DNA of 64,000 bases from Leucoraja ocellata (GCA_036785375.1 JAWMAR010000061.1:1488001-1552000), one strand, 5' to 3'. Positions 581 to 62,617 are shown, numbered from the stretch's first letter. The notes: a model not told the origin generated them from the letters alone. Made by a program: numbers and translations.

Positions 581-1348
581 CTCTCCTAACCACGTTCTCC
601 TGCCTTGTCCCCATAACCCCTGACACTTGATCAGACTGAAGAAGGGTCTCGACCTGAAACGTCACCCATCCATTCTCTCCAGAGATGTTGTCTGACCCGC
701 TGAGTTACACCAGCATTGTCTGTCTGCGGTTTAAACCAGCATCTGAAGTTCCTTCCTACACTTACCAGGCTGAGCCTGGCACCATGACTGCACCCATCCT
801 CAATCTGATACCTTGCATCTGGCAGAGCGTGCATCTCCACTGTGGCCTCACAATACTCCAAACGCGGTCTGATCAGCGCCTTATAGAGCCTCAGCATTAC
901 ATCCCTGTTCTTCTATATTATATCCCTCTTGAAATAAATGTCCTTTGCCTTCCTTACTACCGATACGACTCGCAAATTAACTTTTGGGAATCCTGCACCA
1001 GCTCTCCCAATTCCCGTTGCACATCAGATTTCCGTATTCTCTCCCCATTTGTAAAATAGTCTATGCCTTTACTCCGACGACCAAAACGCATGACTCCGCA
1101 CTTTGTCAGAGGCTCCCGTGTCTGGAGATTGCACGAGTCAGCTTGCTGAATGTGGGCTGGAGGGCTGCCCCAATTTGGCTTCCTGTTCGCATTCTCGGTC
1201 AAAGCCCTCTGCTCTGAGGTTTACCCTTGTCACGATATGTGGCTCCCGCAAAGCCCCCTCCCCTTCCACAGCTTCCTTTAGCCTCAAACGTCGGACCACC
1301 GAAGCTCTATATTTTCATTCCGTGTAAAATTCTCAACGAGAGGCAAAT
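200..1348 (+). repeat. Local direct duplication, copy 1 (copy 2 at 8703-9863)
   Basis: Colinear near-identical sequence at an offset of ~8.5 kb; ORF pairs 631-897/9145-9411 and 1103-1327/9618-9842. Confidence 0.92.
636..663 (+). ncRNA. Minimal hammerhead ribozyme core (duplicate at 9150-9177)
   Basis: CUGAAGA-A-GGGU(CUCG)ACCU-GAAA-C-GUC. Confidence 0.55.
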
Positions 1349-1372
1349 TTAATTCAATTCAATTCAATTCAA

Positions 1373-1572
1373 NNNNNNNNNNNNNNNNNNNNNNNNNNNN
1401 NNNNNNNNNNNNNNNNNNNNNNNNNNNNNNNNNNNNNNNNNNNNNNNNNNNNNNNNNNNNNNNNNNNNNNNNNNNNNNNNNNNNNNNNNNNNNNNNNNNN
1501 NNNNNNNNNNNNNNNNNNNNNNNNNNNNNNNNNNNNNNNNNNNNNNNNNNNNNNNNNNNNNNNNNNNNNNNN
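1373..1572. other. N run (assembly gap or masked sequence)
   Basis: 200 Ns following (AATTC)n. Confidence 0.95.
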
Positions 1573-2123
1573 CTCCCCTCTCTTGTAAGCATGGATGCAG
1601 TGAGCAGGTACACTATCACAAATGACCAAGACAGACCTATCTGGTCAGTGTGGGAGGCGAATGGGCCGAGATCGCCTGGCCTCAGTCAGGGTTGCATTGG
1701 TGACCTGGAGTTCATTTGTTGAGTACGTCCATGTCCTTTGCTATCTGTTTCCTGCAGCCCCAGCATGCAGTGACCTCGGTTGCTGCGTTGGGATGATGTC
1801 AAATGATTCACTTGTGTTTGTCTTGGGGTTTGGCTCCACTCCAAGGGCAGCCGGGTGCCATCGAGTCCCTGCTCTGAACGGTCATCATGTCTCTACTGGA
1901 GATCTCCAAGGTTAATGAGTCACTGATGCATCATTGTTATGCGTGCCTAGGTACAGTGACATACTTTGTTTTGCATTGTTCTTAAGTGATAGGAGCAGAA
2001 TTAGGCCATTCGGCCCATCAAGTCTACTCCGCCATTCAATCAAGGCTGATCTATCTCTCCCTCCTAACCCCATTCTCCTGCCTTCTCCCCATAACCCTTG
2101 ACACCCATACTAATCAAGAATCT

Positions 2124-2315
2124 GGAGAACTCAGCGGGTGCAGCAGCATCTATGGAGCGAAGGAAATAGGCAACGTTTCGGGCCGAAACCCTTCAGGTTT
2201 CGGCCCGAAACGTTGCCTATTTCCTTCACTCCATAGATGCTGCTGCACCCGCTGAGTTTCTCCAGCTTTTTTGTGTAACCTTCGATTCTCCAGCATCTGC
2301 AGTTCCCTCTTAAAC
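2124..2315 (+). mobile_element. Fold-back Penelope-terminus mini-element with 15-bp TSD
   Basis: Inverted arms centred at ~2195. ACTAATCAAGAATCT at 2109-2123 and 2316-2330. Confidence 0.85.
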
Positions 2316-2369
2316 ACTAATCAAGAATCTACCTGTCTCTGTCTTAAAAATACCCATTGACTTGGCCAC

Positions 2370-2676
2370 AGCACGGTGGCCCAGCGGTAGAGTTGCTGCC
2401 TCACAGCGCTTGCAACGCCGGTGACCTGGGTTCAATCCCGACTACAGGTGCTGTCTGTACGGAGTTTGTACGTTTTCCCCGTGACCTGCGTGGGTTTTGT
2501 CCGAGATCTTCCGTTTCCTCCTACTTTGCAAAGACGTACTGGTTTGTTGGTAAATTGGCTTGGTATAAATGTAAATTGTCCTGAGTGTGTTAATGTGCAG
2601 AGATCGCTGGTCGGCGTGGACTCGGTGGGCCAAAGGGCCTGTTTCTGCGCTGTACCTCTTGTAAAACTAAAAACTA
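2370..2676 (+). mobile_element. tRNA-derived SINE (HE1/V-SINE-like)
   Basis: A-box-like TGGCCCAGCGG, B-box GGTTCAATCC, central GGAGTTTGTACGTT..CCCGTG...TGGGTTTT domain, CR1-like tail and (TAAAAC)n end. Confidence 0.8.
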
Positions 2677-2764
2677 AAGCCTTCTGTGGCAATGAATTCC
2701 ACAGACTCACCAAGCTTTGACTGTAGAAATTCCTCCTCATCTCCTTCCTAAAGGAACGTCCTTG

Positions 2765-59831: not shown

Positions 59832-60145
59832 AACATAGAAAAAAAAACATAGAAATTAGGTGCAGGAGTAGGCCATTCAGCCCTTCGAGCCTGCACCGCC
59901 ATTCAATATGATCATGGCTGATCATCCAACTCAGTATCCCGTACCTGCCTTCTCTCCATACCCCCTGATCCCCTTAGCCACAAGGGCCACATCTAACTCC
60001 CTCTTAAATATAGCCAATGAACTGGCCTCAACTACCCTCTGTGGCAGAGAGTTCCAGAGATTCACCACTCTCTGTGTGAAAAAAGTTCTTCTCATCTCGG
60101 TTTTAAAGGATTTCCCCCTTATCCTTAAGCTGTGACCCCTTGTCC
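59832..60145 (-). mobile_element. CR1-clade LINE 3' end
   Basis: Near-identical to 31654-31958. Confidence 0.88.
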
Positions 60146-60550
60146 CGGGAAGTTAATATTACTTTGATTTAATGATAGTTCCTTGATCAGTGCAAACATT
60201 TCTTTGGTCTTCGACTGAGTTACCAGCCGTGATGCTCTAGTCCTGGTTTGAAGTCAATTGAGTTCTATTCAATTCAATCGAAGAAGGTTTCTGACCCAAA
60301 ACGGCCTATCCATGTTTCCAATGATGCTGCGTGGCCCTCTGTAACTTCAGCAATTTGTGTTCTACGCAAGATTCCAGCATCTGCAGTTGCTTGTGTCTTC
60401 AATTGTATTGTGCCAAGTAGATTTTTCATTCCTGGATATTTTGTTTATTTAATTAACTAACTGGTGAATGAGGCAAATTTGAAGGTAAACTTGAAAAAAA
60501 CATTGAGGTAAAATGGCATTTTTAATTTCTATATTGACTAACAGATTAGT

Positions 60551-60578
60551 CTGACGAAGGGTCTCGGCCCGAAACGTC
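60551..60578 (+). ncRNA. Minimal hammerhead ribozyme core (Penelope-type)
   Basis: CUGACGA-A-GGGU(CUCG)GCCC-GAAA-C-GUC. All core nucleotides are present, with palindromic ACGU in place of stem III. Flanks AUUAGU/GCCAAU give a partial stem I. Confidence 0.65.
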
Positions 60579-61033
60579 GCCAATTTCCTTCGCTCCATAG
60601 ATGCTGCCTCACCCGCTGAGTTTCTCCAGCATTTTTGTCTACCTTCGATTTTCCAGCATCTGCAGTTCCTTCTTAAACAGGTTGTTGTTGAAAGCTCCGA
60701 ATCCTCAGGGCATTGAGCACTGTCACATCACCTCAAATTAACGGTAATATAGAGAAACAAGAAACTGCAGATGCTGGTGTAAAAATCAACTCACAAAGGG
60801 TCTCTGCTTGGTCTTGCTGATGTAGGGGCGACCACATAGAGAACGCTGGAGGCAGTGGATGAGGTTAGAAGAGGTGGATGTGAACCTCTGTCTCACCTGG
60901 AAATAGATGCTACCTGAGCTGCTTAGTCACTCCAGCATTCCCACAATATTCGGCATTTCCTAATCATTATTCAGGCTGATCTATTTTGTCAATTTCAGTG
61001 CAAAGATTTGCTCCTATTTCAATTCCTTTATTG

Positions 61034-61498
61034 GTTTAGTTCAGAGATACAGCACAGAAACAGGCCCTTCGGCCCACCGAGTCCACGCCAACCTGCGATC
61101 CCCGCACATTAATGCCCCTGTCCCACTTAGGAAACCACAACGGAAACCTCTGGAAACTCTGCGCCCCACCCAAGGTTTCCATGCGGTTCCCGGAGGTTGC
61201 AGGTGGTTGCCGGAGGTTGCAGGTAGTGGAAGCTGGTAGGGAGACTGACATATTAACAAAACATTGACATATTAACACTACCCTGCACACACTAGGGACA
61301 ATTTTACATTCATACTCAGCTAATTAACCTACAAGCTATTACGTCTTTGAAGTGTAGGAGGAAACCGAAGATCTTGGAGAAAATTCATGCAGGTCACGGG
61401 GAGAACGTACAAACACCGTACAGACAAGCACCCATAGTCAGAACCCGGGTCTCTGGCACGAAGGCAGTAGCTCCAGCGATACACCACCTTGCCGCCCT
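61034..61498 (-). mobile_element. tRNA-derived SINE with nested partial MITE (~61112-61250)
   Basis: SINE body interrupted by TGCCCCTGTCCCACTTAGG... MITE sequence. Confidence 0.72.
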
Positions 61499-62589
61499 CA
61501 AGTCTGACAACACCTTAAACACTGTTTTGTGCAAATCAGTGGAAATGTTTATTTAAACGTTGAATTCTGCAGTACAGTTCCACAAGCCTAATCCCCACTG
61601 TTGAATCTGACTTACAAAGAAAGACTTGTCAGCAAGGCAAGAGCTTTTTACTTGTATATGAGGAGATATCAGGCACAAGTGATATGAATGAAATGAAGAA
61701 GATATTCTTGAACCATACAGTAGTTGGGATGCTCCAACATGGCACATTGGGGATACAAATGTCTGGTTAAAACGGCTCAATCTAACCAGACGCAGATGTT
61801 GAAACAGAGATTTAGAAATTGGATGAACTAAAGTGGGTCAAACTGTCTTCATTTTTCACCATCTTGTACAAATTGTTGCCAGATTATGGAGAATTATGCA
61901 CCATTCTTTAGCCAGAGGGTGGTGAATCCATATAATCCATTGCCACAGACTGATGTGAAGGCCTAGTCAATGAGTATTTTTAAAGCAGAGATTAATACGT
62001 TCTTAATTAATAAGGGCATCAAAGGTTACGGGGAGAAGATTTGGGTAGAATAGATCAGTCATGATCAAATGGTGGAGCAGACTTGATGGGCCAAATGGCC
62101 TAATTCTGCTCCTATGGCTTAGCAAGAGAAGATTTTGTGGCTCCCTAAATTCAAGATATTGTCGACTTGACTGATTTTATTTTGTACGTTTACATTTCTA
62201 GTTCCTTTACACCACAAATTCAGTTATCGTTTTATGAATCTAAACTTAATTACAAGTGGTCTAATAACATTTGTTGAAATCGGTTTTACCCATGAACTGG
62301 CCCAGATTTGCTTAAATGCACCAAATCAGACAAGGTCACGTTTTGTGTGTTCTGCTCCAAATTGTCTTGTGAGTGGGAAGCATATTCCTCAAGAAGTTTA
62401 AGAAAGTCTGAAGAAGGGTTTCTGCCCGAAATATTGCCAATATTTTATTTATTTTAATCTACTTTACCCATAATTTAAGTTTTGCTGAAAGTTCAAAGTT
62501 GGTGGTGTGCACTTTAAAATAGCTTCTCCAATCAGCAGAGAAACCTTTCACGCGTATTATAAAGTTGAAGCATAAAAGTCTCTTGCAGG

Positions 62590-62617
62590 CTGAAGAAGGG
62601 TTTCGGCCCGAAACGTT
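62590..62617 (+). ncRNA. Minimal hammerhead ribozyme core (Penelope-type)
   Basis: CUGAAGA-A-GGGU(UUCG)GCCC-GAAA-C-GUU, in an insertion flanked by a GTCTCTTGCAGGCT duplication. Confidence 0.58.

Follow-up and report, generated by a model that had tools for sequence, protein, structure and literature searches.

In a 64-kb stretch of the Leucoraja ocellata genome (GCA_036785375.1 JAWMAR010000061.1:1488001-1552000; hereafter the window), we analyzed a recurrent hammerhead ribozyme motif that a first-pass annotation had attributed to Penelope-like elements (PLEs). The copies are best explained as mostly decayed PLE insertions copied from uncut RNA that likely began at the sequence TCAGT, an explanation that we consider probable. 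They extend an already described system to another group of animals and do not amount to a dense array of functional ribozymes.

Identity and anatomy of the element

The motif almost certainly belongs to the pseudo-long terminal repeat (pseudo-LTR) of Neptune/Nematis-type PLEs with a reverse transcriptase (RT) and a GIY-YIG endonuclease, and its identification as the minimal type-I hammerhead of such a repeat, following RT and GIY-YIG open reading frames (ORFs), was confirmed. Longer genome copies encoded both domains in a single ORF with the endonuclease C-terminal (RVT_1, E = 4.5e-7; GIY-YIG, E about 1e-3, just under the Pfam cut-off), as did their homologues; the closest named proteins were those of sharks and rays, with 62-67% identity. 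The three short endonuclease fragments of the window that were tried gave no match in Pfam, and their identity was taken from the longer genome copies; the fragment at 56259..57015 matched at 92% genome copies whose longer ORFs match RVT_1 and GIY-YIG. The CCHH residues (C84, C87, H109, and H125) were invariant, with the cysteines between GIY and YIG, and a CX4CX2C linker preceded the endonuclease in family A. A CX2-5CxxC linker is a mark of Neptune and Nematis as opposed to Penelope and Poseidon (PMC8557442). By this key, the linker together with the CCHH motif would therefore assign the element to Neptune/Nematis, the two clades taken together, rather than to Penelope/Poseidon.

In several subfamilies, the motif lay about 70-230 nt 3' of the GIY-YIG stop codon, after a pyrimidine-rich stretch ending in YAG. 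The proposal that each family sits just 3' of a GIY-YIG fragment was true of family A at core 57106 (93 nt from the GIY-YIG end) and of family B at core 37824 (200 nt), but not of most copies; only these two and probably 7529 adjoined such fragments in the window. Full PLE units were about 4 kb long. Eight partial tandems had two same-strand hammerheads 3.8-4.4 kb apart, and the hammerhead was found in both pseudo-LTRs of one element in nine loci with a pair of copies at that spacing. The two pseudo-LTRs of the same element shared variants at 13 of 39 sites, compared with 25 of 364 between elements, a result that agrees with, but does not establish, repeated copying from a single template. With offsets counted from C3 of the hammerhead core, one full-length copy (L094) began at -2, and the likely start codon was at +163. 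A second candidate for a full-length element (L015) was rejected because it consisted of a solo stub and a separate truncated copy. The traits of endonuclease-containing (EN+) PLE insertions were all found: partial-tandem pseudo-LTRs, an inverted 5' copy, a 30-40-bp tail, and target-site duplications.

Three further features of the element were observed. A splice-donor-like site at about +159 overlapped the likely start codon (L094, L137, L138, L143, and L153) and, with the AG at -3/-2, bracketed a 160-nt exon-like cassette, for which there was no joint among those listed. The N-terminal part of the ORF contained a GC-rich minisatellite of variable length, up to about 3 kb (C373, C70, and C265; L094:3860-4100). 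Short head-to-tail runs of 33-43-nt partial hammerhead units occurred at inversion junctions (L007:297-565 and L014:6238-6479), the first being a natural near-trimer of hammerhead cores.

Detection and copy number

All 18 hammerhead copies named in the first-pass annotation were found in the window. The plus-strand coordinates were exact; those on the minus strand were replaced by the C3 positions 7529, 12346, 19435, 33615, 37824, 42277, and 48090. Only six of the 18 (48164, 57504, 60551, 7529, 12346, and 42277) passed all core and pairing checks. The copies at 636 and 9150, which had been counted separately, are one insertion copied by a local duplication (199-1348 and 8702-9863; 8.5-kb spacing, 98-99% identity).

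A strict minimal-hammerhead descriptor gave eight matches in the window and none in 20 shuffles. For the genome, we sampled 120 stretches of 10 kb (1.2 Mb) at arbitrary positions of the 3.44-Gb assembly, with large contigs over-represented; the same descriptor gave 51 matches there, every one from a single PLE family. The published descriptor, re-coded with a helix I of at least 2 bp, yielded 53 matches in the 1.2 Mb, nine in the window, and none in three shuffles. The recurrent motif is thus real and far above shuffled-sequence chance under both descriptors, yet with the published minimum of at least 3 bp in helix I, there was no match in the window and only eight in the 1.2 Mb, each with G at -3. 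A scan of the window against Rfam returned no hammerhead covariance model among 43 matches at E up to 10, and its microRNA-like matches in the window were rejected as inverted pairs of hammerhead stubs.

A repeat hidden Markov model (HMM) found 61 copies in the window and 479 in the genome sample (0.40 per kb; range 0-24 per 10 kb), making the window about 2.4-fold denser than average. Extrapolation gave about 1.4 million repeat matches genome-wide, each arm of a pair being counted, and the core-intact motifs, at about 42-44 per Mb, extrapolated to about 150,000.

Solo stubs and head-to-head pairs

The stubs were 100-135 nt long and had two fixed 3' ends, at about +93 and +128, which is the PLE tail signature. 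Target-site duplications of the insertions measured 11-17 bp; they flanked 20 of 126 solo stubs, compared with one or two in controls; solo stubs are independent insertions. Among head-to-head pairs, 40 of 79 had a direct flanking repeat of at least 11 nt (2-8 in controls), a few of these being repeat-derived rather than true duplications. The tail could be classified in 64 pairs, the class being undeterminable for 15 of the 79, and was present on exactly one arm in 50, on both in two, and on neither in 12 (p = 1.5e-6). In 43 of 53 pairs, both arms were of one subfamily. The arms also shared derived bases at 27 of 195 variant sites, compared with 3.9% in controls. A head-to-head pair is thus a single insertion with a target-site duplication. 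In EN+ PLE insertions, the tail is likewise described as optional on one end (PMC3846280, PMC8557442).

5' ends of the solo stubs

For mapping of the 5' ends, 540 HMM matches were reduced to 490 with a complete 3' end, which were aligned to 31 references from which damaged copies were omitted and in which family A was thinned; 440 passed the score filter (302 solo and 138 paired). Of the 302 solo copies, 120 started at -6..+2 and 45 upstream of -6. This heap was present in both families, and loose ends at -2 to -4 were also seen in the DNA and RNA of relatives. In the 93 copies called at -3..+2, the pyrimidine fraction of the flank was 0.50-0.51, compared with 0.84 in the element; these flanks are background sequence, and the ends are therefore real. 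At the cut-site zone (+26..+30), there were 12 starts against 9.2 expected, so that no class of cut-site ends rose above background among the 302 solos; an apparent gap at +28 was examined by targeted simulation. Because synthesis starts on the downstream side of the cut site and must cross it to reach the core, every copy that includes the core was made from uncut (or religated) RNA. The templates of the insertions had an uncut hammerhead site, and no class of copies attributable to cut RNA was visible. A second, smaller heap at +19..+21, the 3' foot of stem II, is real (22 starts against 5.6 expected; for example, 42769 and 48588 in the window) and has no explanation in the model proposed below.

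Among short copies that reached the heap, 45 of 165 passed beyond it. Of the long elements that reached the 5' hammerhead, 13 of 18 continued upstream (11 of 15 with duplicate pairs merged), three started at the heap edge, and two more were ambiguous. Creation of the 5' end at the AG was rejected: the G at -2 is present in most heap copies, and the A at -3 in many.

Conservation and decay of the hammerhead

The CUGANGA box with one extra base and the GAAANNUH core were present in the subfamily consensuses without change. Helix II had 4 bp with G10.1-C11.1, within the 3-7 bp expected, and the core, extra A, G10.1-C11.1, and CG palindrome all matched the metazoan PLE consensus (PMC4209133), in agreement with the extra A noted earlier. 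The palindromic stem III was likewise upheld, with CG at 15.2-16.2 in the consensus and the pair kept in 137 of 188 copies. Stem I, described as 2-6 bp, was 2 bp in every subfamily consensus, with U-G or U-A as the first pair; the element consensus is therefore below the published minimum of 3 bp, and no window copy passes the published descriptor. Members with a 2-bp helix I, found by hand, are listed alongside that descriptor (PMC4209133), so this shortfall lowers the case for membership and does not exclude it. Eight loci (L029, L046, L060, L168, L173, L187, L193, and L201) had gained a helix I of 3-4 bp through a G at -3, from the flank or by mutation, which makes them the prime candidates for motifs with activity.

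The core did not differ among the six cluster consensuses, CpG-decay states of single old clusters aside, whereas loop II, H17, and many sites of the tail did; GUU (C to U at H17) was fixed in a young subfamily. A constant core in varying surroundings fits selection on source elements, as far as such one-sided evidence goes. The proposal that variation respects the fold was supported by two fixed helix changes between subfamilies, both one-sided U-A/U-G switches, but not by individual copies: among 192 core-spanning copies, all eight pairs were kept no oftener than under independence (302 of 500 shuffles were as high), and there was no two-sided covariation in the helices. The CUGACGA box at 60551 proved to be a rare variant rather than a family state (N7 was A in 118 and C in 2 of 126 copies). 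The core was kept in 76 of the 192 copies and everything in 33. G12 was mutated in 23% of copies and tail CpG sites in 21%, indicating that the CG-to-CA decay noted at G12 occurs at the neutral CpG rate. Most inserted copies are neutrally decaying stubs. The very high density of ribozymes claimed at first thus held for copy number but not for function, with 33 of 192 copies intact and G12 decaying neutrally.

A tail segment at +60..+79 was nearly as invariant as the core and formed a self-complementary stem in all subfamilies, which makes it a candidate protein-binding or priming element. In the fold prediction, the core paired with the downstream pyrimidine run (-10.6 compared with -4.5 kcal/mol), and the probability of stem II was near zero.

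RNA of related organisms

The RNA reads came from fragmented libraries of related organisms A and E and are therefore silent on expression in L. ocellata. In these relatives, the stubs were abundantly transcribed from both strands. The splice joints listed, 15 of 346 and 15 of 197, included none into the heap site and lent no support to an intron with the pyrimidine tract and AG as acceptor and donors in the endonuclease end or at +159, or to back-splicing. Single-cell reads (X22 and X23 on L103 and L153) were about 3.5-7 times more numerous on the strand opposite to the element, which may reflect library orientation or intronic strand bias.

Features of the window

The copies discussed, with others in the window, are listed in Table 1. 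The partial copy with core 62408 precedes the same-strand copy at 62590 by 182 nt, the closest to a tandem pair in the window.

Table 1. PLE fragments and hammerhead copies in the window (cores given by C3 position)
Position	Strand	Feature
56259..57015	+	5'-truncated PLE ORF fragment of family A, from ORF similarity: end of RT thumb, CX4CX2C linker, GIY-YIG with CCHH
57016..57202	+	3' pseudo-LTR of family A copy: pyrimidine-rich 3' untranslated region (UTR), TCAGT, core 57106 (stem III palindrome lost), short 3' end
37731..38563	-	Family B PLE fragment: GIY-YIG end (decayed), UTR of 200 nt, core 37824, G12 lost
12253..12894	.	Inverted pseudo-LTR copy (-, core 12346, all checks passed) at the 5' end of a family B GIY-YIG fragment (+, 12487-12894)
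7438..8421	-	Family B endonuclease fragment (8421-8240) and hammerhead copy, core 7529, all checks passed
60548..60680	+	Solo stub, start at -3, core 60551, all checks passed, rare C at N7
62590..62682	+	Solo stub, 12-bp target-site duplication abutting C3
62405..62442	+	Partial copy, core 62408
55332..55460	+	Tailed solo stub, 12-bp target-site duplication, stem II mismatch
33521..33618	-	Solo stub, 12-bp target-site duplication, G5 lost
57450..57596	.	Head-to-head pair, plus arm core 57504, all checks passed
48161..48275	+	Stub starting at -2, core 48164, all checks passed; adjoins minus-strand copy 48090 (G12 lost)
42186..42339	.	Head-to-head pair, stem II of 3 bp in minus arm (core 42277)
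5652..5866	.	Head-to-head pair, one-arm tail, 14-bp target-site duplication
2114..2318	.	Head-to-head pair, one-arm tail, 11-bp target-site duplication
35620..35810	.	Head-to-head pair, junction at stem II/III palindrome, one-arm tail, 15-bp target-site duplication
30836..31022	.	Head-to-head pair, one-arm tail, 13-bp target-site duplication
54230..54414	.	Head-to-head pair (family B), one-arm tail, 14-bp target-site duplication
617..732	+	Family B stub, core 636 (U2.1 lost); duplicate at 9131-9246 (core 9150)
11123..11220	+	Solo stub, start at -2, core 11125, stem III palindrome lost through CpG decay
15679..15872	.	Head-to-head pair with decayed core 15780
24722..24808	+	Solo stub with mismatch in stem II, core 24725
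19343..19506	.	Head-to-head pair, CUGANGA box broken in minus arm (core 19435)

The window also contained the first coding exon of a proprotein convertase (S8 pro-domain; 14384-14560, +). A match to the S8 catalytic domain lay 21 kb beyond the window end (C61:1573020, +); the interval from 14.6 to 64 kb is therefore probably an intron of the convertase. A fragment of a long interspersed element (LINE)-like ORF at 10052-10933 (-) matched RVT_1 and ALKBH8_N. Three others, at 31748-32293 (-), 23738-24346 (+), and 40472-40966 (+), had no Pfam match and are putatively LINE-like.

Comparison with known systems

Scattered genome-wide minimal hammerheads of PLEs were already known (PMC4209133; PMC6155905). 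Those described by Cervera and de la Pena in 2014 (PMC4209133) share with the skate motif the CUGANGA box with an extra base, G10.1-C11.1, GAAA-CG-UH, and the palindromic CG; they likewise occur in both pseudo-LTRs and mostly as single dispersed copies from truncated PLEs. The skate motif differs in its 2-bp helix I with a first U-G or U-A pair, below the 3 bp of the published descriptor, and no cartilaginous fish appears in Table S1 or Fig. S3 of that paper. Under our looser helix I rule, the estimate of about 150,000 core-intact motifs compares with about 4,000 in coelacanth and about 9,000 in Xenopus reported there.

In Poseidon PAc of Anolis carolinensis (Frangieh et al. 2024, PMC11167929), the hammerhead also lies at the junction of pseudo-LTR and ORF, two adjacent internal priming sites bound the tail, and both strands are extended. 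Cleavage there is protein-assisted, uncut RNA is the dominant template, and there were zero reads at the cut site. The skate family differs in having the CX2-5CxxC linker, which Poseidon lacks, and a likely start codon that lies 3' of the hammerhead, not at stem II. In vitro, the start site of PAc did not differ between strands, whereas the arms of skate insertions almost always use different sites.

Like the skate units, EN+ PLE units (PMC3846280, PMC8557442) show partial tandems, an adjacent inverted truncated copy, an initiator-like motif in the pseudo-LTR, a tail of 30-40 bp that is often one-ended, and palindromes at inversion junctions. The skate genome differs in its roughly one million stubs of 100-135 nt, whose 5' ends heap sharply at the edge of the hammerhead, and no equivalent heap was found in the accessible descriptions of these units. 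Non-LTR retrozymes, reported in one chondrichthyan (bioRxiv 10.64898/2026.07.22.740005), are also short, non-coding, hammerhead-bearing, and of PLE pseudo-LTR origin, but are defined as head-to-tail tandem repeats, whereas the skate copies are dispersed solos and head-to-head pairs. No head-to-tail array of hammerhead units was found in the window, genome-wide arrays not having been searched. No publication on the skate PLE family or on the 5' heap was found in a search that did not cover most subscription papers or Repbase.

Proposed mechanism and alternatives

We propose that a PLE protein, probably a dimer, would make a staggered cut in both target strands, and that each cut end would prime reverse transcription from one of two positions separated by about 35 nt. 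Reverse transcription would proceed to the RNA 5' end at the initiator-like TCAGT, three bases ahead of the core; retention of a single product would leave a solo stub, and retention of both an inverted pair. Elements extending upstream of the heap would need read-through or strand transfer. Selection would likely maintain the hammerhead solely in active source elements; there, cleavage would be slow, would occur only with protein help, and would take place outside the insertion step. The one-sided shape of the heap and the three of 18 long elements that start at the same edge favor an RNA 5' end at TCAGT, and we lean slightly toward its being the transcription start. TCAGT fits the initiator consensus. 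Internal initiator promoters are known in PLE pseudo-LTRs (PMC2377424, PMC3846280), and the two priming sites, protein-assisted cleavage, and uncut templates of the anole PLE provide precedents for other steps (PMC11167929). Real catalysis in the source element is somewhat likely. Cleavage by viral hammerheads has been shown to act in translation (PMC13725137), and by analogy a role in translation is possible for the PLE hammerhead.

Several observations weigh against this explanation. In a simulation of uniform truncation, 57 of 397 longer copies were miscalled into -6..+2, and part of the raw heap is therefore alignment noise, although most of the ends at -3..+2 are real despite such miscalling. 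The heap ends were spread over -5..+2, more broadly than a single simulated site, and an extra cap-derived G at -4 was not enriched (G, 10%). Because 13 of 18 long elements extend upstream, not all templates end at -3, barring strand transfer or read-through. The fragmented RNA-seq of relatives showed no pile-up of RNA starts or ends at the start site or cut site; such libraries cannot decide self-cleavage 3' of NUH. Base sharing between arms could also stem from gene conversion. Non-CpG mutations in the core were fewer than expected (121 compared with 162; 6.3% compared with 8.0% in the tail, p = 0.01), which we attribute to subfamily structure and edge bias, though weak selection could also explain it. 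Finally, given the 2-bp helix I and the competing predicted fold, catalysis may be nil.

The first alternative is that the heap marks an RT barrier inside a longer RNA, such as proteins on a pyrimidine tract and AG resembling a 3' splice site, rather than a start. Every subfamily has a 70-230-nt pyrimidine-rich UTR with a YAG end followed by TCTGAAGA, the Penelope intron of Drosophila virilis ends at helix I (PMC4209133), and the spread of heap ends over several bases is consistent with such a barrier. However, the pattern is a poor match to a plain barrier: the TCAGT region was passed by 45 of 165 short copies but by 13 of 18 long elements, which would be unexpected for a fixed barrier, and the joints listed included no splice into the site. 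We consider this alternative doubtful, though a serious one.

It also seems unlikely, if still worth weighing, that the motif is a vestigial, non-catalytic hammerhead retained as a promoter or protein-binding part of the pseudo-LTR. Its helix I is below the published minimum, the hammerhead fold was not predicted, cleavage is unneeded to explain the transposition record, and one tail segment is as invariant as the core. On the other hand, the catalytic positions, extra A, G10.1-C11.1, and CG palindrome all match the metazoan consensus, the fixed helix changes preserve pairing, and the switch from C to U at H17 is allowed. Motifs with a 2-bp helix I have been published (PMC4209133), and the anole motif cleaves after protein addition (PMC11167929).

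It is very improbable that the genome is densely populated with functional minimal hammerheads, acting as dimers to cleave transcripts of both host and element. The number of core-intact motifs, the abundant two-strand stub transcription in relatives, and 44 same-strand core-bearing neighbors at most 1 kb apart in 1.26 Mb would provide material for it. Against this stand the neutral decay of G12, the lack of covariation, the 2-bp helix I with its competing predicted fold, and the cut site without 5' ends above background; moreover, minimal dimers with a longer helix I cleave weakly (PMC4209133), and 29 of 49 repeat matches beyond 14.7 kb are sense to the probable convertase intron, with no sign of avoidance. 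Least probable of all is that the stubs are an independently propagating short interspersed element or retrozyme family: they are short, uniform, flanked by target-site duplications, and far more numerous than ORF-bearing copies, and retrozymes derive from PLE pseudo-LTRs (bioRxiv 10.64898/2026.07.22.740005), but the window has no tandem arrays of the unit, the stub subfamilies coincide with endonuclease-linked subfamilies, and both ends and inverted pairs obey PLE insertion rules.

Implications

Minimal hammerheads in PLEs, and the many single motifs that these elements leave across genomes, have been described since 2014; what is new here is the elasmobranch PLE family, its 2-bp helix I, and its scale. 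Starting from insertion copied from uncut RNA, a more far-reaching joint reading can be put forward, which we think improbable with all its steps: the stubs would be a million-copy in vivo record of PLE "strong-stop" complementary DNAs. A PLE dimer would cut with a 12-16-nt stagger, the ends would prime at different sites near the 5' end of its own uncut messenger RNA, and synthesis would end at a start site on hammerhead helix I. The product would land as a solo or inverted stub or, by a transfer to the 3' pseudo-LTR resembling retroviral strand transfer, would yield full-length and partial-tandem copies. If this were true, the 5'-terminal hammerhead would be a protein-gated decapping switch and not a tandem-processing enzyme. 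The useful part of the present finding is mechanistic: the counts constrain the role of the PLE hammerhead, the tail, and the origin of the inverted pseudo-LTR, through uncut templates, copies that end at the upstream edge of the ribozyme, and different priming sites for the two arms.

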